From: Verrucomicrobiota bacterium
GTDB lineage: Bacteria > Verrucomicrobiota > Kiritimatiellia > CAIQIC01
Length of the DNA stretch: 64,000 nucleotides
Assembly (NCBI GenBank): GCA_004321905.1
Contig: SCQF01000053.1
Span: 39,192 to 103,191 of the forward strand
Reading direction: 5' to 3'
The stretch's first letter is position 1. Each line of letters begins with the position of its first letter. The translations under genes were made by a program, and so were the position numbers. Below are positions 24,494 through 43,372 of this stretch, one piece after another. A model generated the notes under the pieces. It did not search any database. It was not told where the DNA came from and saw only the letters and a list, made by a program, of their open reading frames with translations.

Positions 24494-24595
24494 ATAAATT
24501 TTGTTGGCGCCGCGGCTTCGTCACGCACTGCGGGGTTCAAGGATATCGGAGGGGAGCAGCATGGTTCCATGCCGTTGCCTGCAAAGAAACAAGAC

Positions 24596-24660
24596 TGACG
24601 CAAAATTGCACTACGCTGACGTAAATTAGTCGCTAGGAATGCCGACCTGAAGCCAGTAAA
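24596..24660 (+). promoter_or_regulatory. Putative AraC/XylR-type operator-promoter (21-bp-period direct repeat)
   Basis: TGACGCAAAATTGC...TGACGTAAATTAGTC; 46/65 identical to the minus strand of 40549-40613. Confidence 0.65.
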
Positions 24661-24732
24661 TATTACCTCAGTTTTTTCCGCCTGCGGAGCAATTGAGGCG
24701 ATGTTTTTACGGATCGGTAATGGAGAAAGACG

Positions 24733-26286: not shown

Positions 26287-26291
26287 TAGAG

Positions 26292-26309
26292 TTTCCAAAC
26301 CTTGGAAAA
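26292..26309. repeat. TTCCAA-N3-TTGGAA palindrome, single
   Basis: TTTCCAAACCTTGGAAAA, intercistronic. Confidence 0.88.
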
Positions 26310-26327
26310 CAAGCACCGGAGAAAAAT

Positions 26328-28487
26328 ATGAAGCGAAAAATGAGACTGCTCTGGGCCGTGTTGCCGACTTTAGTCGGGATCGCCAATGCCCAGCTTGGCG
26401 ACAAAACGTTCGTCGTGTGGGTTGCGCCAGCCAATCTGACGCAACGCGGTGGTAGCGTGCTGACCATTGACAATCAACACAGTCATTTTGATGGCATCAT
26501 CTTCGGCGAAATTGCGCCAGCCCGCTGGATGGCGGGCAGCGACAACCTTAAACGCACGGAGCGGCAGCAGTCCCCTTGGCCTGTCGAGATCGCCGGGCCA
26601 GATGCAATGGTGCAGGTGGCCATCGCCTATCGCGGCAAGGAGATCACCCTTTATCGCGACGGAAAAGAATACGCACGTTATCCAATCCAACGACCAGAAG
26701 CGTTTGATGAGAAAAGCTTGGTCATCCTGGGTCCGCGCCACGTTCACAACCGCGATTTCTTCGCGGGTGCGATTGACGATGCACGCATTTATGATCGCGC
26801 GCTGACCGGCGAGCAAATCCGCGCGCTAAAACCGAACACCATGTCGGAGATCAAACCTTGGGCGTGGTGGACTTTTGATGACGCCGCTTGTACCGACCGC
26901 ATGGGGCGCTTCGTTGATACACGCCTGATTGATGGCGCATATGTGAAAGATGGCCAGTTGCACCTCGACGGGAAACAGGCCGCTTTTGCTGCCGCACAAG
27001 CAGTGCATGGTCTTGATTCCATCTGTCCGCCGCCGTTACCGCGTTCCATCGCCGAGCAGCCGAAGTTACCCGACGACATCGAAATCGTACGACGCTTTCG
27101 GAATCACCTGCTCGCCGATCCCTATCGTCCAACCTATCACTTCGCGATTCCGGAAGATTATGCGGGGCCATTCGATCCCAATGGCGCGATTTTTTGGCGC
27201 GGGCAATATCACCTGTTTCACATTTATCAGGAAAATCGCATGAATTGCTTTGGACATATTTCGAGCGTGGATTTGGTGCACTGGCGTCAACACCCGACGC
27301 CGCTCTATCCAACGGATAAAAGCATTGACCGTGGCATATCTAGCGGCAACTGCTTCATCAATAAGAAGGGCGAGGCGACGATGCTCTTCCACGGCGTTAA
27401 CGCTGGCAACTGTATCGCCACCAGCATGGACGACAATCTCGACCACTGGACCAAGTTGTCATCCAATCCGATCGTCCCTAATCCGTTGGGGAAGGAGCCT
27501 TATGCCTCGTGGGATCCCTGCGGCTGGGTGGAGGGCAACACCTACTACGCGATTTTTGGCGGCAATCCCGGCCACGGTAAACCCGCCTCAACGTTCAAGG
27601 CCACCGAACTCGATGGTTGGAAATACGTCGGCCCGTTCCTACACCACGAGATGCCGGGCGTCGCCACAAACGAAGACACTTCGTGTCCCGATTTCTTCAA
27701 ACTCGGCGGCAAGCGCGTCCTCATCTGTATCGCGCACAATCGGGGCAACCGTTATTACGTCGGCGATTGGAAGAACGAGCAGTTCGTTCCCGAAATCCAC
27801 GAGCGGATGAGCTGGGTGGACAATACCTACTTCGCGCCGGAATCGCTTGAGGCTCCCGATGGAAGGCGGATTTTGTGGGGCTGGATTTTCGACCAGCGCG
27901 ACGGAAAAACCCGGCTGGCCAGCGGCTGGTCCGGCGAGATGTCGCTGCCGCGTGAACTCTCGCTGGGCGACGACAACCGTCTCCGCCAAAAACCGATCAG
28001 GGAACTCGAATGCCTCCGTTACAACGGACAAACGCTAAAGGACATTACTGTGTCTGCCGGTCAGGACGTCGTGCTCGGAAAAATTTCCGGCAACACGATT
28101 GAACTGGAACTGGAGATCAAACCACAGGACGCTAAACAGGTTGGCGTCAAAGTCTGCCGTTCACCGGGCGGCGAAGAGCAAACCCTGATCTACTACGACG
28201 CAGCCGAAAAAGCGCTGAAGGTGGACGCGACAAAATCGAGTCTCACAGAGGGCAAACGAAATGTTGAATCCGCGCCATTTGCGCTCAAATCGCGCGAGCC
28301 GCTAAAGCTCCGCGTTTTCGTGGACCGCTCGGTCGTCGAGGTCTTTGCCAACGAACGCCAAGCCGTCGTACGGCGTATTTACCCCAGTCGGCCCGATAGC
28401 CTTGGTGTTTCCGTCTTTGCTAACGGCGGCGCAGTCAAAGTCCGCCAAGTCAAATCGTGGCAGATGGCGCCAAGTAACGCGTATTGA
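26328..28487 (+). CDS. Secreted LamG plus GH32-like glycosidase
   Basis: GGAG-N6-ATG; signal peptide; LamG (FAGAIDDARIYDRAL); RPTYHF..FDPNG..YHLF, WDP, SLPREL, LRVFVDRSVVEVF. Confidence 0.88.
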   Translation: MKRKMRLLWAVLPTLVGIANAQLGDKTFVVWVAPANLTQRGGSVLTIDNQHSHFDGIIFGEIAPARWMAGSDNLKRTERQQSPWPVEIAGPDAMVQVAIAYRGKEITLYRDGKEYARYPIQRPEAFDEKSLVILGPRHVHNRDFFAGAIDDARIYDRALTGEQIRALKPNTMSEIKPWAWWTFDDAACTDRMGRFVDTRLIDGAYVKDGQLHLDGKQAAFAAAQAVHGLDSICPPPLPRSIAEQPKLPDDIEIVRRFRNHLLADPYRPTYHFAIPEDYAGPFDPNGAIFWRGQYHLFHIYQENRMNCFGHISSVDLVHWRQHPTPLYPTDKSIDRGISSGNCFINKKGEATMLFHGVNAGNCIATSMDDNLDHWTKLSSNPIVPNPLGKEPYASWDPCGWVEGNTYYAIFGGNPGHGKPASTFKATELDGWKYVGPFLHHEMPGVATNEDTSCPDFFKLGGKRVLICIAHNRGNRYYVGDWKNEQFVPEIHERMSWVDNTYFAPESLEAPDGRRILWGWIFDQRDGKTRLASGWSGEMSLPRELSLGDDNRLRQKPIRELECLRYNGQTLKDITVSAGQDVVLGKISGNTIELELEIKPQDAKQVGVKVCRSPGGEEQTLIYYDAAEKALKVDATKSSLTEGKRNVESAPFALKSREPLKLRVFVDRSVVEVFANERQAVVRRIYPSRPDSLGVSVFANGGAVKVRQVKSWQMAPSNAY

Positions 28488-28578
28488 CCGGCTTTTCCTC
28501 TTTACCGAGGGCGGCGACGCCACCTTTGAAAATATCGAAATTCGACCGTGGGCACCCAGCACAACGATGGAGCAATGA
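28483..28578 (+). pseudogene. Relic 3' end of another GH32-type gene
   Basis: Reads IDRLFLFTEGGDATFENIEIRPWAPSTTMEQ*, resembling NKLGIWVEGGTLLVRDVTIRPL at the end of 33935-36955. Confidence 0.55.
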
Positions 28579-28579
28579 C

Positions 28580-29695
28580 ATGAAAATATTCCGAACACAA
28601 CTCTGCGCTTTCCAAACCTTGGAAATTAGGCACGCCACTTTTTCCAAGGCTTGGAAACGCCTCGCGGTCACCTTGATGGCCACGTTCCCGCTTGTTGCCG
28701 CGCCGCCCGCGCCAACGCCCCAACCGATTCCGAACGACACGACACCGGATGCTGACGCCTTGTTTGCCAGGTTGTTCGCCAATCCAAAACCTGCGCTCAA
28801 GATCACTCCTCAAGAAGGCATTGGCTTTGACGATCCGCAACATAGCTTCCAAGACCCCAGCAACGTCATCAAGGTCGGCGACACCTATTATGTCTGGCTC
28901 TCGTGGCGGCCGCTGGATGTGCATGTCTATAACTCGGTGATCCATTACGCCACATCCAAGGACGGCAAAAAGTGGACGCAGCAAGGCCTCGCGCTCGGTA
29001 AGGGCGCGCCGGGCCGTTGGGATGATTTCGGCGTGCTGACGCCCTACGTCGCGGAAGCCAACGGGAAGTTCTACCTGTTCTATACGGGGGCCGATCGGAA
29101 TTTCTTCAAGGGCAGTGGCAATGCCATCGGTCTGGCCGTCGCGGATAAACCCGAAGGCCCGTGGACGCGCGTTTCTGACCAACCGGTGCTCGCGCCACCA
29201 ACCAATCCGAAGGCATGGGACAGCCATATCAATGATGACGCGCACGTCATCAAGCGCGACGGAAAGTATTGGCTGTATTACAAAGGCCATCCGAGCGGCA
29301 AGCATTGGACCTTGACACAACAAGGCGTGGCTATCGCCGACAAAATCGAAGGACCGTATGTGAAATATACCGGCAACCCGGTCATCAAGAGCGGGCATTG
29401 CTGTTGCGTCTGGCCGCACGCGGATGGCGTCGCCGCCATCGCCGACATCCCCAAAGAACTGCTTTGGGCCAAGGACGGTCTGCATTTTGTCGTGGTGAAA
29501 AAGGGCGGCTATCCCGGTGCTGGCCCCGGGCCGTATGACCCCGACGCACACACCGATACGAAATTCGGTCACGGCATCACGTGGGGTGTCACGCAATTCG
29601 GCCAGCCGACGCTGGACAGCAAAGATCGCTCGGTGGTCGCACGTTTTGATATGGATTTGCGCGCACGCAGCGACGCAGAAAAGGAAATAAAATGA
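28580..29695 (+). CDS. Secreted GH117/GH43-like five-bladed propeller glycosidase
   Basis: GGAG RBS, ATG 28580; FQDPSNVIKVGDTYYVW, IHYATSKDG..W, NDDAHVIKRDGKYWLYYKG, GVAIADKIEGPY.K..GNPV. Confidence 0.8.
   Translation: MKIFRTQLCAFQTLEIRHATFSKAWKRLAVTLMATFPLVAAPPAPTPQPIPNDTTPDADALFARLFANPKPALKITPQEGIGFDDPQHSFQDPSNVIKVGDTYYVWLSWRPLDVHVYNSVIHYATSKDGKKWTQQGLALGKGAPGRWDDFGVLTPYVAEANGKFYLFYTGADRNFFKGSGNAIGLAVADKPEGPWTRVSDQPVLAPPTNPKAWDSHINDDAHVIKRDGKYWLYYKGHPSGKHWTLTQQGVAIADKIEGPYVKYTGNPVIKSGHCCCVWPHADGVAAIADIPKELLWAKDGLHFVVVKKGGYPGAGPGPYDPDAHTDTKFGHGITWGVTQFGQPTLDSKDRSVVARFDMDLRARSDAEKEIK
28609..28657. repeat. TTCCAA-N3-TTGGAA pair inside signal-peptide coding region
   Basis: Cores at 28612 and 28644 (32 bp); encodes FQTLE...FSKAWK. 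Confidence 0.92.
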
Positions 29696-32286
29696 ACAAC
29701 GCATCAACAAAAAATAGCTGTTTCCAAGGTTTGGAAAAACCACACCGTAGAGTTTCCAAGGCTTGGAAACTCCTCGTGGTCACCTTGATGGCCACGTTCC
29801 CGCTTGTTGCCGCGCCGCCCGCGTCCCCTCCCCAGCCGATCCCGAATGATACGACGCCGGATGCGGAGGCGTTATTCGCCAAGTTGTTCGCCAATCCGAA
29901 ACCGGAACGCAAAGTCAGTGTCAACGAGGGGATCGGTTATGACGATCTGCAACACAGTTTTCAAGACCCCAGCAACGTGATCAAGGTGGGCGATACCTAC
30001 TATGTCTGGGTTTCCTGGCGGCCGTTGGATGTACATCTTTACAATTCGGTGATCCACTATGCCACGTCCAAAGACGGAAAGAAATGGGAACAGAAAGGTC
30101 TCGCGCTTGGCAAGGGGCCGGAAGGCAGTTGGGATGATTGGGGGGTGTTGACGCCCTACGTTGCAGAAGCCAACGGGCGGTTCTACATGTTCTACACCGG
30201 CGCGGACCGGAATTTTCTCAAGGGGAGTGTCAACGCGATCGGTCTGGCGGTGGCCGACAAACCCGAAGGTCCGTGGACGCGCGTTTTCGACAAGCCTGTG
30301 CTCGCGCCGTCGGGCAATCCAAAGGACTGGGATAACCAAATGAACGACGACGCGCATGTCATCAAACGTGATGGAAAATATTGGCTCTACTTCAAAGGCC
30401 ATCAAAGGGGAAGGAAGTGGTTTTTGACACAGCAGGGTGTCGCGACCGCGGACAAGATAGAAGGGCCGTATGTGAAATATGAAGGCAATCCGGTGATCAA
30501 GAGCGGGCATTGTGTGTGCGTCTGGCCACACAAGGAAGGCGTGGCCGCCATCGCCGACATCCCTGGAGAAATTCTCTGGGCCAAGGACGGATTGCATTTT
30601 GTCGTGGTTAACAAGGGAGTTTGGCGTGGCGGGGCCGGCCCTGGTCCTTATGATCCCGATGCCCACACGGACACCAAGTCGGGCAGCGGAATCACATGGG
30701 GCGTCATCCAGTGTGGAGATCCATCCGCCGACAATAAAAAACGCAATGTGATTGCGCGTTTCGACTTGGATCTGCGGGCGCGTGAACCCGGCACGAATCC
30801 AGCCCCTGCCGTGTCAACGAGCAACACCGTGCCACCTGAAAACATAGTGCTCAATTTTCACCTCATGCATCCCGGCGGCGACAGTAACCCCGGCGATCCA
30901 AATGCCGCCTTCTATCTCGATGACGTTTATCATCTCCACTACATCCTCGCGCATCCGTGGCACGGCAAGACTTCGTTCTCCTTCGTTCACGTGACCAGCC
31001 CGGACATGCTGCATTGGACGTGGCAGAAAACGACGTTACAACCGGCCTTTACGGGCCACGGGATGTTCAGCGGCACCGGCTTTCTTACGAAGGAAGGCAA
31101 GCCGGCCATTATCTATCAAGGGCAGGCCTCGGGCCGGAACCAGATCGCGCTCGCGAAAGACCGGCAACTGGCGGCGTGGGAGCCGCCTTACCCCGTCGAG
31201 GTCAAGACGTCCGACGGCAAGGTGGCGAAGATCGGGTTTTGGGACCCGGATTGCTTTCGTATCGGCGATACCTACTATGCCATTTCGGGCGAAGAAAATC
31301 CACCGCTGATGAAATCCAAGGACCTGAAAAATTGGACCTTGGTGGGGGATTTCCTCCGGCACAACATGCCGGATGTGACTTGTGGAGAGGACATTTCATG
31401 CGCCAACTTCTTCCCGCTCGGCAACAAATGGATGCTGCTGTGCATTAGCCATGCGCTCGGCTGCCGCTACTATCTCGGCGAGTGGAACGAAAAAGCCGAG
31501 CAGTTCGTTCCAGAAAAACATGGCCGCATGAACTGGCGCAGGGACGGGCAAAGCATCTACGGTCGGCCACCATGGCGGGTTGATTTCTTTGCGCCGGAAA
31601 GTCTGCTCACCCCGGATGGCCGCCGCGTCATGTGGGCCTGGCTTGCGACCATCGGCATGAATGACGGAAAAATGAGCAGCCAAACCATCCAGTCGCTGCC
31701 CCGCGAGTTGAGCTTGCCGTCCGATGGCAACTTACGCCTCAAACCCCTGCGCGAACTTGAAGCGCTCCGTTTCGATCCCGTGACCCTCAACGACATCAAA
31801 ATTGGTGAACTCACCAAGGCCGTGATCCCGACCACGGCTCCCGTCGGGAAAAAGATTACCACACTGGACGGCGATGCCATTGAGGTTCGCATTACCGTTG
31901 CGCGTGAGCAGGCCGCGCGAAAACTCTTCGGATTCACGCTCTTTGCGGACGGCAAAGGTGGCGGACTACCCATCATGTTCCGCCCCGAAACCGGCACGCT
32001 ACGCGTCGGTACCGCCGAGGCGCCATTTATGATTAACGATCTACCCGCAGGCGAAGATGTGGAATTACGCATCTTCATAGACAAATATCTCGTCGAAGTC
32101 TTTGTCAATGACCGTCAAGCCATCGTCGCCAGCTATGCAGATTACCTCGGCAAGCCCGACCTCAGCGCCTTCACCGTCGGCGCTCCCACGACGATCAAGA
32201 AACTTGAAATTTGGAAACTCAAGCCTACCATCCAAGGCTTCCGCGAAGCGCAGCAGAACCGTATTTGGGAACCCTGCGTGAATTAA
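29692..32286 (+). CDS. Secreted GH117-like plus GH32-like fusion glycosidase
   Basis: ATGA overlap with the upstream gene; N-half is a close paralog of 28580-29695; C-half has GDPNAAF..YHLHY, MFSGTG, WDPD, QSLPREL, LRIFIDKYLVEVF. Confidence 0.85.
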   Translation: MNNASTKNSCFQGLEKPHRRVSKAWKLLVVTLMATFPLVAAPPASPPQPIPNDTTPDAEALFAKLFANPKPERKVSVNEGIGYDDLQHSFQDPSNVIKVGDTYYVWVSWRPLDVHLYNSVIHYATSKDGKKWEQKGLALGKGPEGSWDDWGVLTPYVAEANGRFYMFYTGADRNFLKGSVNAIGLAVADKPEGPWTRVFDKPVLAPSGNPKDWDNQMNDDAHVIKRDGKYWLYFKGHQRGRKWFLTQQGVATADKIEGPYVKYEGNPVIKSGHCVCVWPHKEGVAAIADIPGEILWAKDGLHFVVVNKGVWRGGAGPGPYDPDAHTDTKSGSGITWGVIQCGDPSADNKKRNVIARFDLDLRAREPGTNPAPAVSTSNTVPPENIVLNFHLMHPGGDSNPGDPNAAFYLDDVYHLHYILAHPWHGKTSFSFVHVTSPDMLHWTWQKTTLQPAFTGHGMFSGTGFLTKEGKPAIIYQGQASGRNQIALAKDRQLAAWEPPYPVEVKTSDGKVAKIGFWDPDCFRIGDTYYAISGEENPPLMKSKDLKNWTLVGDFLRHNMPDVTCGEDISCANFFPLGNKWMLLCISHALGCRYYLGEWNEKAEQFVPEKHGRMNWRRDGQSIYGRPPWRVDFFAPESLLTPDGRRVMWAWLATIGMNDGKMSSQTIQSLPRELSLPSDGNLRLKPLRELEALRFDPVTLNDIKIGELTKAVIPTTAPVGKKITTLDGDAIEVRITVAREQAARKLFGFTLFADGKGGGLPIMFRPETGTLRVGTAEAPFMINDLPAGEDVELRIFIDKYLVEVFVNDRQAIVASYADYLGKPDLSAFTVGAPTTIKKLEIWKLKPTIQGFREAQQNRIWEPCVN
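29721..29769. repeat. TTCCAA-N3-TTGGAA pair inside signal-peptide coding region
   Basis: Cores at 29724 and 29756 (32 bp); encodes FQGLE...VSKAWK. Confidence 0.92.
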
Positions 32287-32326
32287 GCAAGCAAGACCGT
32301 GCGAAGAAAAACAAAGGTGTTACAAA

Positions 32327-33907
32327 ATGAAAAGAAGATCGTTCATAAAAGGGTTGACCGCTGGAACGATGACCCTGCCTTTTGCGTTGAAGGGCTTGGT
32401 ACAGGGCAACGGCAGCCAGTCCGCGCCTAACTTTCTGGTGATCTGTTGCGATGCGCTCCAGTCCTATGCACTGGCCTGTAACGGCAACCCGGATGTAAAG
32501 ACCCCAAACATCGACCGATTGGCCCGCGAGGGCTGTACCTTCCGTCGCGCCTATTGCAATAATTCGGTCTGTATGCCGGCCCGCTCGACCATGCTCACCG
32601 GGCTTTATCCCCGGCAGCACGGCTGCATCACCAACGGAACCAAACTACCGCCAGCAGTCCCAACGCTGCCCCAGGTGCTTGCCCGGCATGGTTACCGCAC
32701 CCATGCGGTGGGCAAACTCCATCTACAGCCCTGGTCAACGCAAGATTCTTCCGAATCTCTACAGGGGTGGATGAGTGGTTCCATCACAGCACTGCCGAAA
32801 AACTATTACGGCTTCCAATCTTCCGACTTTGTGGGCGGACATGTGAGCTATTGTTTCGGCGACTATACAAACGAACTTCGCAAAACCCATCCGGGTGTTT
32901 TTGAACAATACAGCCGGAGCCGTGCCCCGTGGAGATCGGAAGGAAACAGTCAGACGTGGAAGACCGATGTACCGCCGGAGTTGCATTACAACACTTGGAT
33001 CGCGGAAAAGACGATCGGGTTTATGGAAGCATGTAATCGGGAGCCATTTTTTGTCTGGTGCTCCTTCCCCGATCCGCACATGCCCTTCGCCGCGAGTAAG
33101 CCCTATGCGGATATGTATGACCCCGGAAAACTTCATGTTGATCCGACGGCCTTTGAACCGCATCCGGAGCCGGAGACCCTGCAGCGGCGCCGCGAGTTTT
33201 TCAGTAAACAGTATGTGTTTGATGAGAAAACCTTACGCGAGATAGCCGCCGAGTACTATGGCATGATCAGCCACATTGATGCCAGTATCGGAAGAATCCT
33301 CGACGCGTTGGAGAAAAATAGGCTACAGGAGAATACCATTGTGGTTTTCATTGCCGACCATGGCGAATATCTCGGTTCGCATCACCTGCTCTACAAGGCC
33401 GAGTGGATGTACGAAGAACTGGTGCGCATCCCCATGATCTGGCGGGTTCCGCAAGCAATCCAGCCCGGGAAGGGTTCCGAGAGTGTAGTCAGTCAGGTTG
33501 ATCTGGTGCCGACGATCATTGACTATGCCGGCCTATCAACGTCGGAATTTGACACGCGCGGTGACTATAAGTCCAATGCGTTGACACTTCCGGGGCGTTC
33601 CTTGAAGCCGTTTCTCTCCAACGGAGTGCCGCTGGGAAACAAGCCGGCGTTCCTGGAATATGACGAAGACTGGTATCCAGGCGAATTCTATCGGGTGCGT
33701 ACACTGATCGGTCCGCAGTATAAGCTGATTGTCTATACCCATACCGGTGGCGGGCAACTGTTCGATCTACAGAACGACCCCCATGAACGGAAAAACCTTT
33801 GGGATAACACAGACTACAGCACGGTAAAGGCGCAAATGATGGAGGCTTTACTGCGCGAAGCCTCAACCTATGACCGTGAAGATCAGCGGCGATGGTGCGG
33901 AGCCTAG
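32327..33907 (+). CDS. Tat-exported Cys-type (S1) sulfatase
   Basis: MKRRSFIK twin-arginine leader; CMPARSTMLTG (CxPxR), GKLH, DPH, ADHGE. Confidence 0.92.
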   Translation: MKRRSFIKGLTAGTMTLPFALKGLVQGNGSQSAPNFLVICCDALQSYALACNGNPDVKTPNIDRLAREGCTFRRAYCNNSVCMPARSTMLTGLYPRQHGCITNGTKLPPAVPTLPQVLARHGYRTHAVGKLHLQPWSTQDSSESLQGWMSGSITALPKNYYGFQSSDFVGGHVSYCFGDYTNELRKTHPGVFEQYSRSRAPWRSEGNSQTWKTDVPPELHYNTWIAEKTIGFMEACNREPFFVWCSFPDPHMPFAASKPYADMYDPGKLHVDPTAFEPHPEPETLQRRREFFSKQYVFDEKTLREIAAEYYGMISHIDASIGRILDALEKNRLQENTIVVFIADHGEYLGSHHLLYKAEWMYEELVRIPMIWRVPQAIQPGKGSESVVSQVDLVPTIIDYAGLSTSEFDTRGDYKSNALTLPGRSLKPFLSNGVPLGNKPAFLEYDEDWYPGEFYRVRTLIGPQYKLIVYTHTGGGQLFDLQNDPHERKNLWDNTDYSTVKAQMMEALLREASTYDREDQRRWCGA

Positions 33908-33934
33908 CGCTGCCCCTGTGCGAAGGAAAAAGAA

Positions 33935-36900
33935 ATGAAAACAGTAAACAGCATGCGCCCGCGTTTCTGCCAAAGCTTGGAAGCCCCATGCGGTGTTTTT
34001 TCCAAGGCTTGGAACGCCCTTGTTTTCGCGCTCATCGCGATGGTGCCGATCTTTGCCGCGGCACCATTTAACGATGCTGCCGTGGTTTGGAATTTCACCA
34101 ACGAAAAGGATTCGGCGCAAAAATTTCCGCTGACCATTCACGGTAACGTACAATTAGGTGTTGGTTTGACAGCCGCCGCGCGCGCGGCATCGCTGGCGCG
34201 CGGTGGCGATGGCAAAGTGGCGCAATTTGACGGTGGCTATCTGGAGATTGGCGGGCCAGCCTTTGATCCACCCGGCGGAGAGTTCACGTTGTTGCTGCGC
34301 GTGCGGGATCCGCAGGGCGAGTGGAACGCACCGCTCTTTGGCAGCTACGGCGGTGACGGCGCGGTAAGTTTGTATCTGCATGGCGTGGATGGCGCGACGC
34401 TGCCGTTCGAGGACTACAACTACGGCGGCGGAAAAATGACCACGCCCGCCGCGTGGATGTTCGGCTGGCCGGAAGGCCCGCGGGCGATCCATGGCTCGCG
34501 TGGCGTGCTGGAGTTCCTTTGGGGCGCGAAGAATTGGCCGGTGCCTTTCGCGAAAATGCACATGCTGCCGCCCAAAAACCTGCCCAACTTGGAATCTGTG
34601 CCGCTCTATAGCGACGCGAAGAACGCCGTCATGCGCATCATGTTTCCGATGGAACCGCTGGGGCCGCGCGATTGGCACGATGTGATCGTGCGAGGCACGG
34701 GGCCGAAGTTACAACTCTGGATAGACGGCGTACTGCTCGATGAAGAATTTCCCCGCGGCACCACGCGGCCCGCGACCACGCCAAGATTTTTTGGCGCTGC
34801 ACAACTGGCCGATGGCCAGTTGCTCTCCGGCTTTCACGGGCAGATGGATCACGCGGCGCTATGGCATCGCGCCGTCACCGACGCAGAAATCGCCGCATTG
34901 AGCGGCGGTGAGAAATTATCGAAGCAGCGCGAACTGGCCGTGCTCGGCGCGCCGCCGGAACGAATGCAGTATTACCGACCCAGTGGCCACAATCTGAAGC
35001 CGGGCGATTGCATCCCGTGGTTTCACGATGGAACGTTCCACCTATTTTATCTGAACTTGCGACGCAACATGCACAGTAAATGGGACGGCGGTCACGGCGG
35101 ACTGGAGATCATGCATGCCTCGACTCGTGATTTGATCACATGGCGGCATCATCCGGTCGTTGCACCAATCTCCGAACCATGGGAGACGTGGAATGGCACC
35201 GGCGCGGCGGTATATCACGACGGGAAGTATTGGATGTTCTACCCCACCCCGGATTACTACGGCGACCACGGCGGCATTCAACTGGTCACCAGTCCGGATG
35301 GCGAACAGTGGACCAAGCAGTATCCGCATCCCTTTCTACCCGGCGGCGATTGCGAAATCTTCCCCGATCCCGATCCGGGCAAAAAACTTTTCCATATGAT
35401 CAAAATCGGCAAGACCTTTGGCAACACATTGCCAGAATTGAAGGATAAAACCCTGGTGGCATGGGTTTCGCCTGCCGATCTGGATCAGCATGGCGCGGGC
35501 ATACTGACTTTGGAAAGCAAGGCAGGACCTTTCGATTCGTTGGTCTTCGGCGAGTGCGTGCCACGGCGTTGGATGGCCGGCAGCGAGAACCTACAGCGCA
35601 CGCAGAAGGATCAGCAAAAGAATACGGAAGAGACGGCGAAAGCCGGCGAGTGGGTTCAGGTTGCCGCGGTTTATGCCGGCAAGACGGTTACGCTCTATCG
35701 CAACGGCGCACGCTATGCACAGTATGGTGTTGAGCAACCGCTGCACTTTGATGCTGGCGCGCGAATTCTGATCGGTCTGCGGCATTTCGCCATGCAGGAT
35801 GACGCCAAGGCGCACTTCCACGGTGCGATTGCCGATGCCCGCGTGTACAACGTGACATTAACCGATGCACAAATTGCGAAATTGCGCCCACATGAAGCCG
35901 CTGGCCCGAAGCCACTGGTCTGGTTCGATTTCAAAGCCGGCAATACCAGCGACCGCGCTGGTTTGCTCGCATCCGCCGAACTTAAAGGTGGCGCGGTGGT
36001 GTGCGACGGACGGTTGGTGCTCAACGGCGAAAAAGCCTATCTGGGGAGCAGCGGTCAGAAAGTAACGCTGGCGCATTGGATTTCGGAAGACCTCAAGGAT
36101 TGGAAGGAACTACCCGATCCGTTCTTGGAAACCGATGCGAACATCCACCCACAGATGTGCCCGAATTGGTTCCAGTGGAACGACTGGTATTATTTTGTCG
36201 GGGGTGGTGGTTACATCTGGAGATCGAAACAACCTTATGGTCCATGGACGATGCAATCACCCAGTCAGGTGGATTCGCTCGCCGTGCCGAAGGCGGCTGA
36301 ATTCCCCGGCAACCGCCGCATCTACGCGGGCTGGATGGGCGATGGCGGCTTCGGTGGCAACCTTGTTTTGCGTGACTTGGTGCAGTTCGAGGACGGTACG
36401 CTTGGCACCAAATTTGTGCCGGAAATGATTCCGCCCACCGGCGCACCAATCACGTTGAAAGAAACGGAACGCAACGCCCGGCTCGAAGCAAAATCAGGCC
36501 GCCAGCAAATCCTGCTCGACAATGTCCCCAATAATGCGCGCATCACGCTGACGATCGAACCGCAAGGCGTGATGAAAGCCTGCGGCTTGCGGCTGCGCAC
36601 CACCGATGGCGAACACGATGGCACGGAGTTCCGCCTCGACCCCCGCACCGCTCGCGCCTCCTATTCGCACAGCACGCACAGTGGCAGTGGCGGTCCGCTT
36701 GCCGGTGGCCGATCCATCGGCGGACTGCGCGGTCTCGGTAAGCCTGTGCAACTCGACGTCATTTGTCGCCACGATGTCGTGGATGTGGAAGTGGATGGAC
36801 GCCACACACTGGCCGGTTATTTTTGGAATCCAAAAGGCAACAAGCTCGGCATCTGGGTTGAAGGCGGCACGCTGCTCGTACGCGACGTGACGATCCGTCC

Positions 36901-36955
36901 GCTGCTTGAACAATTTGCGCCCGGCGCAATCCATACGCCGGAAATCAAAAAATAA
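33935..36955 (+). CDS. Secreted LamG plus GH32-like protein with a second LamG inserted in the propeller
   Basis: AAGGA RBS; LamG (FHGQMDHAALW), GDCIPWFHDGTFHLFY, internal DKTLVAWV...FHGAIADARVY, then resumes HWISEDLKDW...CPNWF. Confidence 0.82.
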   Translation: MKTVNSMRPRFCQSLEAPCGVFSKAWNALVFALIAMVPIFAAAPFNDAAVVWNFTNEKDSAQKFPLTIHGNVQLGVGLTAAARAASLARGGDGKVAQFDGGYLEIGGPAFDPPGGEFTLLLRVRDPQGEWNAPLFGSYGGDGAVSLYLHGVDGATLPFEDYNYGGGKMTTPAAWMFGWPEGPRAIHGSRGVLEFLWGAKNWPVPFAKMHMLPPKNLPNLESVPLYSDAKNAVMRIMFPMEPLGPRDWHDVIVRGTGPKLQLWIDGVLLDEEFPRGTTRPATTPRFFGAAQLADGQLLSGFHGQMDHAALWHRAVTDAEIAALSGGEKLSKQRELAVLGAPPERMQYYRPSGHNLKPGDCIPWFHDGTFHLFYLNLRRNMHSKWDGGHGGLEIMHASTRDLITWRHHPVVAPISEPWETWNGTGAAVYHDGKYWMFYPTPDYYGDHGGIQLVTSPDGEQWTKQYPHPFLPGGDCEIFPDPDPGKKLFHMIKIGKTFGNTLPELKDKTLVAWVSPADLDQHGAGILTLESKAGPFDSLVFGECVPRRWMAGSENLQRTQKDQQKNTEETAKAGEWVQVAAVYAGKTVTLYRNGARYAQYGVEQPLHFDAGARILIGLRHFAMQDDAKAHFHGAIADARVYNVTLTDAQIAKLRPHEAAGPKPLVWFDFKAGNTSDRAGLLASAELKGGAVVCDGRLVLNGEKAYLGSSGQKVTLAHWISEDLKDWKELPDPFLETDANIHPQMCPNWFQWNDWYYFVGGGGYIWRSKQPYGPWTMQSPSQVDSLAVPKAAEFPGNRRIYAGWMGDGGFGGNLVLRDLVQFEDGTLGTKFVPEMIPPTGAPITLKETERNARLEAKSGRQQILLDNVPNNARITLTIEPQGVMKACGLRLRTTDGEHDGTEFRLDPRTARASYSHSTHSGSGGPLAGGRSIGGLRGLGKPVQLDVICRHDVVDVEVDGRHTLAGYFWNPKGNKLGIWVEGGTLLVRDVTIRPLLEQFAPGAIHTPEIKK
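33964..34014. repeat. TTCCAA-N3-TTGGAA pair inside signal-peptide coding region
   Basis: Cores at 33970 and 34002 (32 bp); encodes FCQSLE...FSKAWN. Confidence 0.88.
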
Positions 36956-36962
36956 ACGCCGG

Positions 36963-37010
36963 TTTCCAAGGCTTGAAAAAGGGTCGTTTCTTTTTTCCAA
37001 GCCTTGGAAA
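36963..37010. repeat. TTCCAA-N3-TTGGAA palindrome pair
   Basis: Cores at 36966 and 36997 (31 bp). Confidence 0.88.
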
Positions 37011-37049
37011 CCGCGTGCCATTTCGCGCCATTCGTGGTTTATTCCTCCG

Positions 37050-37787
37050 GTGCTGCAACAAACTTTTTGTCATTTACCGGGCATCGGCACGACGACGGAG
37101 CGTCGCCTGTGGCGCGAAGGCATTCGCGATTGGCCGACGCTGATTACGGAAGGCCACCGGCTACTCCATGCCGGACGTGTTGACGCGGTTTGCCGCGTGG
37201 CGGAAGAAACCATCGCGCGCTTCGAGCGCCGCGACTGGACGTGGTTCGATGCCACCCTACCCTCCGCCGTCAAGTGGCGTGCGTTTGGCGAACTCGGCCA
37301 GCACGCGCTTTACGTGGATATCGAAACCGATGGCGGCTTTGGTGCAGAGGCGATCACCGTCATCGGGGCCTTTGATGGTGTGGCGACGCATATGTTTGTG
37401 GCCGACCGTAATCTGGAAGCAGCGCGTGAGTTGATCGAAGCCCACCCGTTGGTGGTCACGTTCAACGGTCAAGCGTTCGATATGCCGCTGATTCACGAAC
37501 GGTTCCGCCACAATCTTTTTAACCACATCCATGTTGATCTGCGCTTTCCATTGCGCAAGTTGGGACTGCATGGCGGATTGAAACTCATCGAGCAAATAGT
37601 CGGACTGGAGCGGGCTTTGCAAACACAGGGCCTGGATGGTTGGGCTGCGGTACGGCTATGGCAGGAATGGCAGGCCGGCAGTGCTGCTGCGTTGGACTTG
37701 TTGCTGGCCTATAATCGCGAAGACGTGGTCAATCTGGCTCCGCTAATGCGGCTGGCTTTCGACCGCTTGAAAAGCTCATCACCTTAG
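37050..37787 (+). CDS. YprB-like RNase H-fold (DEDD) exonuclease
   Basis: TFCHLPGIG...E..LW..GI, LYVDIETDG, VTFNGQAFD, GGLK.IE, YNREDV. Confidence 0.85.
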   Translation: MLQQTFCHLPGIGTTTERRLWREGIRDWPTLITEGHRLLHAGRVDAVCRVAEETIARFERRDWTWFDATLPSAVKWRAFGELGQHALYVDIETDGGFGAEAITVIGAFDGVATHMFVADRNLEAARELIEAHPLVVTFNGQAFDMPLIHERFRHNLFNHIHVDLRFPLRKLGLHGGLKLIEQIVGLERALQTQGLDGWAAVRLWQEWQAGSAAALDLLLAYNREDVVNLAPLMRLAFDRLKSSSP

Positions 37788-37841
37788 CGGCGCTTACCGC
37801 TTTTGCCTTGCCACCCGCGATTAACCCGGCAGAATGCCCAC

Positions 37842-38822
37842 ATGGTACGTTCGTTTATTTTCAGCCAAGGCAAGCTGGTCAGCCAAGACCCCGGTTTGGA
37901 TGTGTTGCGGCTGGTGCTCTACGACGAAGATGCGCAAATCTGGGTGGATTTGGAAAACCCGACCGAACAGGAAACCAAGGACCTGCTGGAAGGCGTTTTC
38001 AGTTTTCATCCGCTGGCCATCGAGGACTGCGTGACCTTGAGCGAACGGCCCAAGGCCGATGAATACGAGAACTATGTGTTCATGGTCATTCACTGCGTGG
38101 CCTATGATGCCGCCAAACGCGACATCTGCGCCACCGAGTTGAATATGTTCATCGGAAAAAACTTTCTGGTCACCTACCATCGCGAACCGATGCGCAGTGT
38201 CACGGCGACCATTGAGCGCGTACAGAAGAACGCGCCGCTGGTCGCCCGCGCGCCCGACCGCCTGACCTACCATTTGCTCGACGCCCTGTTCGAGCAGTAT
38301 GAACCCGGCTTGCAATCATTAGCATTGGATCTTGAGCAGTTGGAGGAACGCGTGTTGACCGCGCCGAGCACTGATATCGTTGGCGATGTGGTTGCGCTCA
38401 AAGGCGTGGTACAAAAATTAAGGCAAGTCGTCCTGCCGCAGCGCGAAGTCATCGCCCGCGTGGCCCACGGCGAGTTCAAGATTGTGCGCGTCCATTTGTT
38501 GCCCTATTTCCGCGATCTGCTCGACCGACTCGCGCATCTCAACGATGTGGCTGATAACTATCGCGAGGCGTTGACCGGGATTTTGCAGGTGCATCTCAAT
38601 TTACAGCAAATGCAGATCAACCAGATCATCAAAGTGCTGACCGTACTGGCAACCCTTTCACTACCGATTCTGGCGGTCACCAGTTTCTATGGCATGAACA
38701 TCAGGCACATGCCGAATACCGAATGGCCTTCGTGGGAATATGCCTATATTTGGATTCTCGGCATGGTCATCCTCTGGACCGCACTCATCTGGTGGTGGAT
38801 CAAGAAAAAAGGCTGGTACTAG
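37842..38822 (+). CDS. corA: CorA Mg2+/Co2+ transporter
   Basis: FHPLAIEDC, YFRDLLD, YGMN motif and two C-terminal TMs. Confidence 0.93.
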   Translation: MVRSFIFSQGKLVSQDPGLDVLRLVLYDEDAQIWVDLENPTEQETKDLLEGVFSFHPLAIEDCVTLSERPKADEYENYVFMVIHCVAYDAAKRDICATELNMFIGKNFLVTYHREPMRSVTATIERVQKNAPLVARAPDRLTYHLLDALFEQYEPGLQSLALDLEQLEERVLTAPSTDIVGDVVALKGVVQKLRQVVLPQREVIARVAHGEFKIVRVHLLPYFRDLLDRLAHLNDVADNYREALTGILQVHLNLQQMQINQIIKVLTVLATLSLPILAVTSFYGMNIRHMPNTEWPSWEYAYIWILGMVILWTALIWWWIKKKGWY

Positions 38823-38877
38823 GCGCGGTCGGTTTTCTTCGTCCGCAGTAGGATGGTAGCCAACAACGTGGTGGAAT

Positions 38878-38892
38878 CTCCAAGGGTTGGAA
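38878..38892. repeat. TTCCAA-N3-TTGGAA palindrome, single
   Basis: CTCCAAGGGTTGGAA. Confidence 0.6.
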
Positions 38893-38906
38893 GCGGCAAT
38901 CCGGCG

Positions 38907-38951
38907 TTGGTAGTCGCCCTTGTTGGCATCAAGGCTACCGAACAGGCCGGC
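38907..38951 (-). pseudogene. Possible xylose isomerase (XylA) relic
   Basis: 15 codons read AGLFGSLDANKGDYQ, matching the class II XylA motif GxxGSIDANRGD. Confidence 0.45.
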
Positions 38952-39024
38952 ACAACGCAGACACTCGCGGATGGTTATGCCGTTGATTTTCTGGACGGAA
39001 TTATACCACTTGAAGGCCAGTGGG

Positions 39025-39072
39025 TTCCTGGACTTGGGACCTACGAAAGCGATTTTTCCAATCTTGGGGAAA
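39025..39072. repeat. Degenerate palindrome pair
   Basis: TTCCTGGACTTGGGA and TTTTTCCAATCTTGGGGAAA, ~31 bp apart. Confidence 0.5.
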
Positions 39073-39121
39073 TATCACGATGGCCGATGACGGGTTGCAG
39101 GCCACCGCCACTGATGGTCCA

Positions 39122-40513
39122 TTACTCAATACCCAGCTCTTGCTGGATTTTTTCCAGCGTGATCCCTTTGGTTTCCGGCATAACGAGGATAACCCAGAAC
39201 AGTTGTCCCACCATGAACAGCGCATAGCAGGCGAAGGCCATCCAGCCGGCGGCTGCCGCAATCATGGGGAACGTCCATGAAATAACGGCATTCATGCCCC
39301 AATGGGTAAAACTACCCAACGCCTGACCGCGGGCGCGTACGCGATTCGGAAAGATTTCGCTGATGAACACCCAGATTACCGCGCCCTGCCCGAAGCCGTG
39401 GGCCGCGATAAAGACCAACAGGCTCCCCAAAAGCAGCCTGCCGTTACCCCCCGTATAGAAGGCGTAGGCCGCGCCGCACAAGCCGATGATGTAACCGATG
39501 GAACCCAGCAGCATCAAACGACGCCGTCCAACGTGGTCAATGATCACCAAGGCGGCCATGGTGAAGACCATCATGGTGAACCCGATAATCACCGATTGCA
39601 ACAGGGCCGACTCCACCCCGGCGCCTGCCATTTTGAAAATCGTGGGGGTGTAATAGAGCACCGCATTGATGCCGGAAAGCTGATTGAACGCTCCCATCGC
39701 CACCGCGAGGAGGATCGGTTTGAGGTATTTCTTGCAATAGAAGGGTTCCTGCATGGTGTGGTGTGTGAGATCCAACGAGGCTTGGATGTCCTTGATTTCA
39801 TCTTCCAAGTTGTCCGCGTCGGCACCGCATTGCTCCAGCACGCCACGCGCTTCATCCACCCGTTGTTTGGCGATGAGCCAACGTGGACTTTGCGGTGTGA
39901 AGAACAGCAGGAAGAAAAAGGCCGCGGCGGGGAGCGCCTGCACCCCGTACATCCAGCGGTACTGCAACTCACCGAGCATGGCGCCAGCCAAGCTGCTAAT
40001 CAAATAGTTGGAGAGGTAGGCCAGCAGAATGCCGAAGACTACGTTGAATTGTGTGACGGCCACCAACCGTCCGCGATATTTGGCCGGCGAAATTTCTGCA
40101 ATGTACATTGGCGAAACCACCGATGCACCGCCGACGGCCAAACCACCGAGAAAGCGGGAGATGAGGAAGGACCACCAGCTCCACGCTAACGCACAACCGA
40201 TGGCGGATATGAAATAAAACGCCGCCAAAACGAACAGGATGCTACGCCGACCAAACGCATCGGAGGGGCGCCCCACCGCGAGCGAGCCGATGATGGTGCC
40301 AATCAAGGCACTGGCTACCGTAAAACCCAGCAAAAAGGACGATAGCTGCCCTTCAGCGATGGTCGGAAAACTGGACTGTAGCTCGTGCGTGATTTGGGCC
40401 ACAAACCCCGTTTTGAGCCAATCCGTCGTCCCCGAAATAACCGCTGTATCAAATCCAAAGAGCAACCCGCCTAAAGCCGCAATGATCGTTATGCCAAGTA
40501 ATTTCCATTTCAT
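39122..40513 (-). CDS. MFS sugar porter
   Basis: AALGGLLFGFDTAVISG, DAFGRR, YIAEISPAKYRG, NQLSGINAVLYY, SEIFPNRVR, PETKG. Confidence 0.94.
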   Translation of the reverse strand: MKWKLLGITIIAALGGLLFGFDTAVISGTTDWLKTGFVAQITHELQSSFPTIAEGQLSSFLLGFTVASALIGTIIGSLAVGRPSDAFGRRSILFVLAAFYFISAIGCALAWSWWSFLISRFLGGLAVGGASVVSPMYIAEISPAKYRGRLVAVTQFNVVFGILLAYLSNYLISSLAGAMLGELQYRWMYGVQALPAAAFFFLLFFTPQSPRWLIAKQRVDEARGVLEQCGADADNLEDEIKDIQASLDLTHHTMQEPFYCKKYLKPILLAVAMGAFNQLSGINAVLYYTPTIFKMAGAGVESALLQSVIIGFTMMVFTMAALVIIDHVGRRRLMLLGSIGYIIGLCGAAYAFYTGGNGRLLLGSLLVFIAAHGFGQGAVIWVFISEIFPNRVRARGQALGSFTHWGMNAVISWTFPMIAAAAGWMAFACYALFMVGQLFWVILVMPETKGITLEKIQQELGIE

Positions 40514-40548
40514 GATGCTTCCTTGTTACTGGTAATTATTTCGATGCT

Positions 40549-40613
40549 TTTACCTGCTTCTGCGTGTGATTCCCAGAGACAAATTTGCGGCAGATCAGCG
40601 CCATTTTGCGCCA
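40549..40613 (-). promoter_or_regulatory. Putative AraC/XylR-type operator-promoter
   Basis: TGGCGCAAAATGGC...TGCCGCAAATTTGTC with 21-bp period, between the divergent MFS and regulator genes. Confidence 0.65.
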
Positions 40614-40681
40614 AAGTGGCTGGTGGTCAAACTTGCGCGCTTGCGTCAGCAATCCGACCCTGCCAAACTGCGTCGGTAAAC

Positions 40682-43371: not shown

Positions 43372-43372
43372 C

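Follow-up and report, generated by a model that had tools for sequence, protein, structure and literature searches.

The paired palindrome that is read in frame near the 5' ends of three genes in the window, the 64,000-nucleotide stretch of DNA analysed here, is probably a genome-wide DNA site recognised by a putative protein and tolerated in leaders, and not a leader peptide. The three genes and their palindromes are as follows.

28580..29695, plus strand: GH43-like glycoside hydrolase gene, 371 aa; GGAG and ATG; signal peptide with a 27-residue n-region
28608..28658, no strand assigned: paired palindrome 1, two 19-mers with a 13-nt spacer; codons 10-27 of the 28580 gene, FQTLE-IRHAT-FSKAWK
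29692..32286, plus strand: GH43-like and GH32 two-domain hydrolase gene, 864 aa; ATGA start/stop overlap
29720..29770, no strand assigned: paired palindrome 2; codons 10-27 of the 29692 gene, FQGLE-KPHRR-VSKAWK
33935..36955, plus strand: Laminin_G_3 / GH32-like protein gene, 1006 aa; AGGA and ATG; signal peptide holding the element
33966..34016, no strand assigned: paired palindrome 3, first copy with 1 mismatch; codons 11-28 of the 33935 gene, FCQSLE-APCGV-FSKAWN

The three N-termini were found exactly as quoted in the initial annotation, namely an ATG with a Shine-Dalgarno sequence, the element and then a hydrophobic core. Each start has the following support: GGAG lies at 28569-28572, 7 nt 5' of the ATG at 28580; AGGA lies at 29682-29685, 6 nt 5' of the ATG at 29692, which shares bases with the upstream gene's TGA (ATGA); and AGGA lies at 33924-33927, 7 nt 5' of the ATG at 33935. 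In 3/3 genes, the first palindrome begins at codon 10-11 and reads F(C)QxLE, and the second reads SKAW(K/N) and is followed at once by a hydrophobic stretch. The component 15-mers, at 28610/28642, 29722/29754 and 33968 (1 mismatch)/34000, are exactly 32 bp apart in each pair. Pair 2 lies 25 nt past the stop codon of the upstream gene, and pair 3 lies 59 nt past that of a sulfatase gene. From the second palindrome to the hydrophobic core, none of the three genes has an in-frame ATG, GTG or TTG. An in-frame TTG is present inside the first palindrome; if translation began there, the second palindrome alone would be translated. The Shine-Dalgarno sequences and the lack of a later start before the core indicate that translation of the three genes probably begins at the ATG 5' of the element; hence, the element would be passively translated as a long, positively charged n-region.

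The N-terminal domain encoded by the 29692 gene is a paralogue of the 28580 protein, and DNA homology between the two genes begins only at the second palindrome. The 28580 and 33935 proteins have nothing in common but the stretch encoded by the element and a distant GH32/43-type core, in agreement with the earlier claim that the third N-terminus is not homologous to the first. No orthologue of the 28580 gene was detected among 40 relatives, in which matches had about 40% identity or less. Hence, we used database homologues for the N-terminus comparison. The closest one (72% identity) has a short ordinary signal peptide (MK and a hydrophobic core), and such element-free homologues carry ordinary short leaders before the same mature sequence. 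The membership in a secreted family, the short leader of the homologue and the lack of a start between the second palindrome and the core support the proposal that the element is hosted in a cleavable leader.

The features observed directly are the anatomy of the element, its copy number, the location, phasing, even spacing and conservation of the copies, their imprint at the codon level, and the fact that they are read in frame. The unit is a 19-bp palindrome, TTTTCCAAG[G/C]CTTGGAAAA, mostly paired 32 bp apart. We counted 1240 copies (856 exact) in about 809 loci of the 2.53-Mb genome, with 415 pairs; single palindromes were also common. The distances between neighbours were exactly 32 bp in 374 pairs, 31 bp in 43 and 21-22 bp in 6. 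Eight triple arrays were present, and relatives carried arrays of 3-7 units with periods of 22 and 31-32 bp. A reversed control pattern gave 0 copies in each genome searched, and the numbers of copies with 0/1/2 mismatches were 856/384/253 as against 0-1/7-13/85-157 for controls. The mismatches spared the CC/GG core. Neither the 13-nt spacer nor the flanks showed a consensus or self-complementarity, and no GTAG or CGTC tag was found at the repeat end. The stem ends in A/T, and A-runs and unconserved sequence come after it, with no U-tract. In the window, TTCCAANNNTTGGAA was matched 34 times with at most 1 mismatch (0.15 expected; maximum 2 in 100 shuffles). The copies outside the three leaders are listed below.

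26293..26307, no strand assigned: single palindrome, 5' end of the GH32 gene 26283-28487; the longest ORF reads it as FPNLGK
4079..60502, no strand assigned: span of the remaining window copies, pairs and singles
4079/4111, 7034/7066, 14842/14874, 18605/18637 and 36964/36995, no strand assigned: pairs
44485/44515, 49511/49543, 53892/53924 and 54447/54479, no strand assigned: pairs
10702, 11659, 16641, 38878, 46458, 47695, 52211, 58620 and 60488, no strand assigned: singles

In the genome as a whole, 581 of the 809 loci (about 72%) were intergenic, typically 1-14 nt past a stop codon; 280 palindromes began at this distance and 0 overlapped a stop codon. An element occupied 29 of the 43 short convergent gaps of 20-60 nt (67%) and 37% of the divergent gaps. 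Ribosomal-protein operons also host it (rpsL/rpsG, L24/L5 and S13/S11). The mean spacing of loci was 2.85 kb, and its coefficient of variation, 0.65 as against 0.92 +/- 0.03 in 300 simulations (minimum 0.84), shows that they are spread more evenly than by chance. Furthermore, loci deep in coding sequence (CDS) had a median distance of 2094 nt to the nearest intergenic locus, compared with 1240 +/- 119 nt for random CDS positions. The longest stretch free of the motif was a 19-kb low-GC Wzm/Wzt polysaccharide island, which is likely to be acquired DNA. The neighbours of the eight triples and of the relatives' arrays were unrelated housekeeping genes, with no shared DNA-binding neighbour among them.

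The remaining 228 of the 809 loci lie within predicted CDS, where all three frames are used (92/34/33 for the deep copies). Among the host genes are those of AroB, PlsY and other cytoplasmic or membrane proteins, together with an array of Tat-signal sulfatases. Beyond codon 50, FQxLE occurred 94 times (5.9 expected), and 81 of these 94 used exactly TTC CAA NNN TTG GAA (3.5 expected). Among 30 aligned orthologues of AroB, the pair was at the same place in 4/4 genomes of the genus; in PlsY, 6/30 orthologues had the pair and 3/30 a single palindrome, across four families. In both genes the first palindrome arises from native codons without insertion, and the second comes with an in-frame insert of 7-9 residues. 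The AroB site was made in situ out of a similar native stretch, FFxWLE becoming FQxLE.

The motif is common to a bacterial class within Verrucomicrobiota, and its in-gene positions are kept across genera and families. Genomes of the class hold 0 to about 1000 copies, with tens to about 1000 in many families, and those of other classes at most 1. A search of the full text of articles returned no description of the motif; in the accessible text of PMC3733652, the sole mention was of GTAG repeats in O. terrae.

These results are best explained by a sequence-specific protein that would bind each palindrome as a dimer, with neighbouring sites presumably bound cooperatively on one face of the helix, 32 bp being three helical turns and 21-22 bp two. 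The sites would be maintained at roughly one per 2.8 kb of chromosome, where they are least harmful: right after stop codons, in intercistronic gaps, or else in tolerant parts of CDS. The element would persist in signal peptides because these tolerate extra residues, and in the three leaders the FQxLE...SKAWK n-region would be removed together with the leader. Candidate outcomes of binding are nucleoid organisation or regulation, and a DNA-uptake or self signal. Palindromes with centres an integer number of helical turns apart are found in tandem NrdR boxes and Lrp sites, and the studied centres are likewise 21-22 or 31-32 bp apart. However, the degenerate sites of NrdR and Lrp regulons lie upstream of genes and number from a few to some hundreds, whereas here about 800 near-perfect sites are mostly post-stop and also inside genes. 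An AsnC/Lrp-type binder was considered and rejected: a full-length copy is encoded in nearly every genome with or without the motif, and a short second copy follows phylogeny rather than the motif. Within one genus, the density of copies differs by a factor of more than ten (714 copies in 2.5 Mb as against 162 in 7.2 Mb), which is odd for an essential architectural site and counts against the favoured explanation. In the available text of PMC13756078 and bioRxiv 10.1101/2024.09.10.611283, HIP1 (GCGATCGC) of cyanobacteria is described as a palindrome of a large clade with a 'quasi-periodic distribution' in coding and non-coding DNA, whose function is still debated and has been linked to DNA exchange. 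The studied palindrome is similarly clade-wide, evenly spaced, and coding as well as non-coding; HIP1, however, is an 8-mer tied to methylases, and the studied site is a paired and phased 19-mer.

A special case of such recognition is a DNA-uptake or 'self' signal. The natural-transformation machinery would prefer DNA with the palindrome, so that uptake bias followed by recombination would build up copies at tolerant places, as with USS, DUS and perhaps HIP1; our analysis makes this unlikely, although several observations fit it. The USS of Pasteurellaceae and the DUS of Neisseriaceae occur about once per 1-3 kb, evenly spaced in genic and intergenic DNA, leave a frame and peptide imprint on the proteome and often form inverted pairs just after genes. 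The studied site is also dense (about one locus per 2.8 kb), evenly spaced, present in and between genes and frame-biased, with a strong peptide imprint. The formation of sites in place from near-matching native sequence, the class-wide motif with its very uneven density, and the likely acquired island as the largest motif-free stretch point in the same direction. In family f1, ComEC was found in the motif-rich genomes G000, G001 and G002 and was not found, by the family model or the G000 protein, in the motif-poor genomes G003, G004 and G005. However, the latter are 82-94% complete and represent at most two loss events; comEC does not adjoin rpsB in G001 or G002, which makes synteny with rpsB uninformative about the loss. 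ComEC is encoded in 148/151 genomes of the class, many of them motif-free, and hence does not explain the distribution of the motif. DprA was found in 5/5 relatives tested, and ComEA (HHH_3) was uninformative. To our knowledge, no uptake sequence consists of palindromes set a constant 32 bp apart, which counts against this reading; unlike USS and DUS, the studied site is palindromic in itself, with its copies paired at a constant helical phase and set in arrays.

An RNA-level element of the REP type, whose hairpin would protect the upstream mRNA from 3' exonucleases, be a processing site or act as an attenuator, is decidedly unlikely. The pair folds as a predicted RNA hairpin of -20 to -31 kcal/mol (-23 to -31 kcal/mol with z-scores of -3.3 to -8 in 4/5 tested). 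Its position 1-14 nt past stop codons resembles that of REP elements, which keeps an RNA role in consideration, and the occupation of 67% of short convergent gaps and of intercistronic sites in long operons accords with such a role. In the window scan, canonical promoters and terminators were at chance level (20 terminators against 22.9 expected in 20 kb), which also leaves room for it. An intrinsic (Rho-independent) terminator was rejected because of the missing U-tract and the sites inside the rpsL/rpsG, L24/L5 and S13/S11 operons, AroB and PlsY. The lack of a U-tract after the stem also weighs against an RNA element in general, and the fixed 12-13-nt loop together with the 21-22-bp class fits helical phasing rather than the needs of a hairpin. 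Furthermore, we observed no G.U-compatible excess on the transcribed strand (45 wobble against 38 A.C in co-directional gaps; 27 against 39 in CDS) and little covariation at the centre positions, where the bases of the two copies pair at 0.62 against 0.54 expected, a slight excess. The occupation of 37% of divergent gaps, the pairs conserved within the AroB and PlsY CDS and the many single palindromes argue against this reading as well.

REP, BIME and REPIN sequences resemble the studied element in being short, mostly extragenic palindromes with hundreds of copies, often in inverted doublets with a variable spacer, placed after genes and between cistrons. A selfish miniature mobile element of this REPIN/MITE-like kind, which a tyrosine (RAYT) or other transposase would copy and place in frame at tolerant sites, is nevertheless very improbable. 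The inverted doublets, the high copy number, the in-frame inserts at the second palindrome in AroB and PlsY, and the strong density difference between close relatives are what it would predict. The genome also has five Y1-transposase-like genes or domains, and similar spacers were found in 228 locus pairs at 3 or fewer differences (69 in a column shuffle). However, three stand-alone RAYT-like genes are each flanked by their own different palindrome doublets, one of them GTAG-tagged, and the palindrome flanking an IS200-like gene is different again; the studied element flanks none of the four, in contrast to REPINs with their cognate RAYT. RAYT-like genes were present in 34/41 relatives, including motif-free ones, and thus do not track the motif; the RAYT link was therefore rejected. 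The spacers without consensus, the first palindromes made from native codons, the sites persisting across families, and the even spacing with filling of gaps are unexpected of transposition. Moreover, the studied element lacks the GTAG/CGTC tag of REP sequences described in the accessible text of PMC3733652. It also differs from them in its perfect AT-ended palindrome, fixed 32-bp phase, class-wide sequence, conserved CDS copies and even spacing. The initial annotation had cited Rickettsia palindromic elements as a precedent. The comparison is apt for a palindromic repeat read in frame within intact protein genes; it breaks down for size and make-up. The Rickettsia elements are inserts of roughly 100-150 bp with a conserved internal sequence in one genus, whereas the present unit has 19 bp (51 bp when paired), a free 13-nt spacer, parts derived from native codons and a majority of intergenic copies.

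The initial annotation further proposed domestication of the element into a leader (FQxLE-x6-SKAW), possibly one that times export. By our own crude gene caller and hydrophobicity rule, 18 of the 23 element-bearing N-termini with ATG and Shine-Dalgarno starts were signal-peptide-like, compared with a base rate of 43% (Fisher p about 0.001). The proportion was 10/15 (p 0.07) without one paralogous sulfatase array, and 23/57 against a base rate of 35%, that is, no enrichment, when all predicted starts were used and the array was left out. The enrichment for signal-peptide-like N-termini is thus weak and hinges on the one sulfatase array. The peptide motif occurred in 23 predicted proteins, within the first 30 residues in 10 (5 of these followed by a hydrophobic core) and far from the N-terminus in the other 13. 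According to our own tally, 10 pairs lie directly before a signal-type core, 5 in the SKAWK-last frame, 5 in the FPRLGK-last frame and 0 in the FQGLE-last frame; in some proteins the element comes before the core and in others after it. A dedicated leader module with an export role, such as an mRNA hairpin timing targeting, is hardly credible: at least 30 genes hold the element in a Sec or Tat signal region (own tally) and its lysine-ending frames do precede hydrophobic cores, but most of the about 809 loci are intergenic (581) or in non-secreted proteins, three frames and cytoplasmic hosts are used, and homologues of the 28580 protein are exported via ordinary short leaders.

Returning to the protein-recognised DNA site, a near-perfect, phased and evenly spaced palindrome that has lasted as long as a bacterial class and has been forced into CDS suggests that this poorly studied, mostly uncultured group has a global DNA-reading system not recognised so far, and the 19-bp palindrome is a concrete bait for finding the putative reader. 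We tentatively suggest that it may be a class-wide, helically phased and evenly spaced mark, read by a putative nucleoid organiser or an uptake/self-recognition protein, with a pressure for one site per few kilobases that is strong enough to write sites into CDS. If so, signal peptides, membrane-protein loops and enzyme helices would have been reshaped by it, FQxLE being raised sixteen-fold in the proteome.

The element also bears on annotation, as hundreds of genes of the class have their 5' ends beside or across it. Sec and Tat leaders can carry 17 extra residues dictated by the DNA, which is useful for signal-peptide prediction, and true long n-regions such as those of the 28580, 29692 and 33935 proteins may be wrongly trimmed. 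A degenerate remnant at 32387 in the window's sulfatase gene (4 mismatches) was too weak to call. Longest-ORF calls, in turn, yield false N-termini such as FPNLGK at the 26293 palindrome; an ordinary signal peptide (MKRKMRLLWAVL...) begins about 45 nt 3' of this palindrome, which is therefore probably 5' untranslated.

The three N-termini at 28580, 29692, and 33935, which the initial annotation had described as signal peptides with a paired palindrome in their n-regions, were translated exactly as it gave, and a Shine-Dalgarno-like (SD) motif was present 6–7 nt before each of the three ATGs.

Starts of the three secreted-hydrolase genes and their 15-mer palindrome cores, 32 bp apart
28580, + strand: ATG of gene 1; GGAG at 28569–28572; cores at 28610 and 28642
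29692, + strand: ATG of gene 2, overlapping the TGA of the upstream gene; AGGA at 29682–29685; cores at 29722 and 29754
33935, + strand: ATG of gene 3; AGGA at 33924–33927; cores at 33968 and 34000

In all three genes, the first copy encodes F(C)QxLE, the second copy encodes SKAW(K/N), and a hydrophobic stretch with an AxA-like end follows at once. No in-frame ATG, GTG, or TTG was found between the second palindrome and the hydrophobic stretch; hence, a protein that keeps this core must translate at least the second palindrome. The sole alternative start was an in-frame TTG within the first palindrome. The genes encode glycoside hydrolases (gene 1, GH43-like; gene 2, GH43-like and GH32; gene 3, Laminin_G_3 and GH32-like). 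The closest database homologue of gene 1 (72% identity) had an ordinary short signal peptide followed by the same mature sequence, PIPNDTTPDAEALFARLFANP, and short leaders were also seen in most of the other gene 1 homologues inspected. Accordingly, the gene 1 family is exported, with a leader n-region of about 27 residues in this genome. Genes 1 and 2, paralogues with 79% identity, show DNA similarity that begins only at the second palindrome; the first palindrome was intact in both although the DNA around it (codons 1–10 and the spacer) was unrelated. The element lies 120, 25, and 59 nt from the preceding stop codon in genes 1, 2, and 3, respectively, within a dense sugar-utilisation cluster; this is its usual after-stop zone, here already coding. 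At 26283–26330 of the window, the longest ORF of a GH32 gene (MIEFPNLGK...) begins within a single palindrome; this start is probably false because an ordinary signal peptide (MKRKMRLLWAVLPTLVGIANA) begins 15 codons later.

The palindrome is not special to these three genes. With at most one mismatch, TTCCAANNNTTGGAA had 34 matches in the window against 0.15 expected, and the whole genome (2.53 Mb, 85 contigs, 59% G+C) contained 1240 palindromes, of which 856 were exact. The full unit was TTTTCCAAG[G/C]CTTGGAAAA. The separation of successive copies was exactly 32 bp for 374, 31 bp for 43, and 21–22 bp for 6, other short distances being rare, and neither a consensus in the 13-nt spacer or the flanks nor self-complementarity of the spacer was found. 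Grouping gave 809 loci, comprising 415 pairs, 8 triples, and 386 singles; for 108 of the singles, a degenerate partner lay at the expected distance, compared with 4–6 at a control distance. Copies with 0, 1, and 2 mismatches numbered 856, 384, and 253, whereas control patterns gave 0–1, 7–13, and 85–157; this spectrum indicates that the copies are kept near-perfect and do not decay freely. A palindrome was also located about 130–150 nt into contigs C3 (151), C5 (134), and C9 (130), and the repeat may contribute to assembly breaks.

Placement was analysed with our own rough gene calls (codon-usage scoring with SD/ATG weighting; 1978 genes), by which 581 loci were intergenic and 228 lay within predicted coding sequence. 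As many as 280 palindromes started 1–14 nt after a stop codon and none overlapped one. For 69% of 335 loci in co-directional gaps, the stop was closer to the element than the following start was; the element mostly lay 20–100 nt before that start. Gap occupancy was 38% for convergent, 37% for divergent, and 24% for co-directional gaps overall, and 29 of the 43 convergent gaps of 20–60 nt were occupied. The element was also present inside ribosomal-protein operons (rpsL/rpsG, L24/L5, and S13/S11), and no T-run followed the palindrome stem; these positions and the missing T-run indicate that it is not an ordinary terminator. A textbook intrinsic terminator, with a 14-bp G+C-rich stem and then a T-run, occurs at 23954–23995 of the window, so canonical terminators exist in this genome beside the palindrome.

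The loci were more evenly spaced than expected by chance. Distances between loci averaged 2.85 kb, and their coefficient of variation was 0.65, whereas random placement of the same numbers in gaps and genes gave 0.92 ± 0.03 (minimum 0.84 in 300 trials). Furthermore, the coding copies fill stretches without a usable gap: the median distance from deep in-gene loci to the nearest intergenic locus was 2094 nt, compared with 1240 ± 119 nt (maximum 1548 in 200 trials) for random coding positions. The longest motif-free stretch (contig C18, 41151–60223; 19 kb) had 53.5% G+C against 59% for the genome and encoded Wzm/Wzt ABC export, methyltransferases, glycosyltransferases, and a DegT aminotransferase; this polysaccharide gene cluster is likely acquired DNA. 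Other long motif-free stretches were rpoBC and the S10-spc operon. Contigs C13 (5.6 kb, 38% G+C) and C2 (6.5 kb, 51% G+C), which have no palindrome and an atypical composition, may be foreign or mis-binned DNA.

The coding copies are real and old. Among the 159 loci lying more than 150 nt inside predicted genes, 92 read FQxLE, 34 FPxLGK, and 33 SKxWK. Beyond codon 50, FQxLE occurred 94 times, compared with 5.9 expected from composition and 3–7 in six shuffled-order controls, and 81 of the 94 used exactly TTC CAA NNN TTG GAA, for which codon usage predicted 3.5. In AroB, all four genomes of the genus carried the pair at one and the same position; the two genomes of the sister genus retained a weaker first copy, and two of another family had a perfect first copy made from a native FFxWLE. 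The second AroB copy lay within a 7-residue insert specific to the family. Among 30 PlsY orthologues from four families, six had a pair and three a single copy at one loop position, consisting of a native FPxL motif and an 8–9-residue insert that was absent from the family without the motif. The element upstream of aroE was likewise present both in this genome and in one genome of another family. Moreover, 13 Tat-signal sulfatase paralogues, 12 of them in an array on contig C66 and the other on C18, carried FPRLGKSxxAxFQGLEK after the hydrophobic core. A further sulfatase, which lies between genes 2 and 3 of the window (32327–33907), has a Tat-like start (MKRRSFIKGL...) but only a remnant of the element, with four mismatches at 32387, where these 13 hold a near-perfect pair at the equivalent place.

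By our count, a Sec or Tat signal region contained the element in at least 30 genes. Ten pairs lay directly before a signal-type hydrophobic core; five of them ended in SKAWK, five in FPRLGK, and none in FQGLE(K). Lysine-ending frames at this position fit the need for positive charge before the core, which argues that these copies are really translated. The association of the element with secreted proteins was weak and depended on the starts considered. With ATG and SD starts, 18 of 23 element-bearing N-termini resembled Sec, Tat, or TM leaders (base 43%; odds ratio about 5, p about 0.001), and the proportion was 10 of 15 without the sulfatase array (base 43%; p 0.07); with all predicted starts and without the array, 23 of 57 (base 35%) was not significant. 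The exact peptide pattern, FQxLE-x6-SKAW, occurred in 23 predicted proteins, in 10 of these within the first 30 residues, and a hydrophobic core then followed in only 5. The initial annotation had proposed an element hosted in, or domesticated as, a leader. The hosting is supported by the exported family and by the lack of an in-frame start between the second palindrome and the core, whereas domestication is not supported, given the weak enrichment and the genome-wide occurrence. In the simplest account, the site would be wanted at gene boundaries, and a copy within a gene would persist only at a place that can absorb 17 arbitrary residues without harm; leaders, being cut off, would be such a place.

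As RNA, the paired element could form a 17–19-bp stem (−20 to −31 kcal/mol). The pair distances were quantised, at either two or three helical turns; the would-be loop had a fixed length and a free sequence. The centre bases of the two copies paired at a frequency of 0.62 against 0.54 by chance, only a slight excess. Single mismatches avoided the CC/GG core and showed no preference for G·U compatibility on the transcribed strand (compatible versus not, 45 versus 38 in co-directional gaps and 27 versus 39 in genes). Taken together with the common singles and the in-gene copies, the quantised distances, weak centre pairing, and lack of G·U preference favour recognition of double-stranded DNA by a putative protein over an RNA hairpin.

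Copy number ranged from 0 to 1014 in 40 relatives of the order, with more than 400 in a genus of family f4, and 24 of 41 genomes (the host genome and these 40) had at least one copy; a reversed control pattern had no copy in any of the 41. In a phylum sample of 251 genomes, many families of the same class had tens to hundreds of copies, and genomes of other classes never had more than one. In relatives, three to seven copies also formed arrays, the periods being 22 and 30–32 bp, and some lineages preferred a different central triplet (TGA/TCA). Public MAG records with the label Lentisphaerae or Verrucomicrobiota contained exact copies of the pair. The host genome (2.53 Mb at 94% completeness) had the highest palindrome density; its same-genus genomes G001–G003 are listed at 5.3–7.2 Mb. 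The palindrome is class-wide, phased, evenly spaced, and near-perfect, and it leaves its imprint in proteins as well. REPs, uptake sequences, and HIP1 each share different features with it, but the tests run for membership of REP/RAYT, terminators, and Rickettsia-type elements placed it in none of them, and full-text searches found no description of it in the literature. It would serve either as a site for a nucleoid or regulatory protein or as a signal for uptake or self-recognition.

An uptake signal is hinted at by ComEC, which was present in 38 of the 41 genomes of the order. Neither the family model nor the protein of the host genome found it in G003, G004, and G005, which are the motif-poor members of the host's family (162 copies in 7.2 Mb, 5, and 1, respectively) and which retain DprA, whereas the three motif-rich members have ComEC. 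However, of 151 genomes of the class, 148 have ComEC, including many that lack the motif, and the three ComEC-less genomes represent at most two loss events; hence, we treat this link only as a hint. Candidate readers were examined one gene family at a time, and AsnC/Lrp-type genes were rejected because they do not track the motif. RAYT was also rejected: Y1-transposase-like genes, of which the host genome has five (genes or domains), also occur in motif-free relatives, and the stand-alone RAYT-like genes are flanked in REP fashion by other palindromes, each gene having its own doublets, with a GTAG tag (GTAGGAGCCCGGCCCCGCCGGGC...) in one case.

Y1-transposase-like genes of the host genome with palindromes of their own
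Contig C53, 9800–11000 (L086): stand-alone RAYT-like gene, own palindrome doublets on both sides
Contig C48, 54800–55900 (L087): stand-alone RAYT-like gene, own palindrome doublets on both sides
Contig C27, 20600–22000 (L088): stand-alone RAYT-like gene, own palindrome doublets on both sides
Contig C36, 73341–73826: IS200-like TnpA, 83 bits to Y1_Tnp, flanking palindrome GCCTAGGGC-n3-GCCCTAGGC

The three stand-alone loci resemble classical REP/RAYT systems that are distinct from the TTCCAA palindrome. Two further RAYT-like domains were noticed on contig C53, outside the window. A Y1-transposase/RAYT-like domain with an HUH motif lies in frame within an alanyl-tRNA synthetase frame (24536–27835) of 1099 aa without stops, and the RAYT query also hit long frames of this kind in G003, G004, G005, and a further relative, G020. 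An RdgB/HAM1-like NTP pyrophosphatase (15271–16566) has a C-terminal fusion to a RAYT-like domain, which showed 55% identity to the stand-alone RAYT-like gene at 10153–10677.
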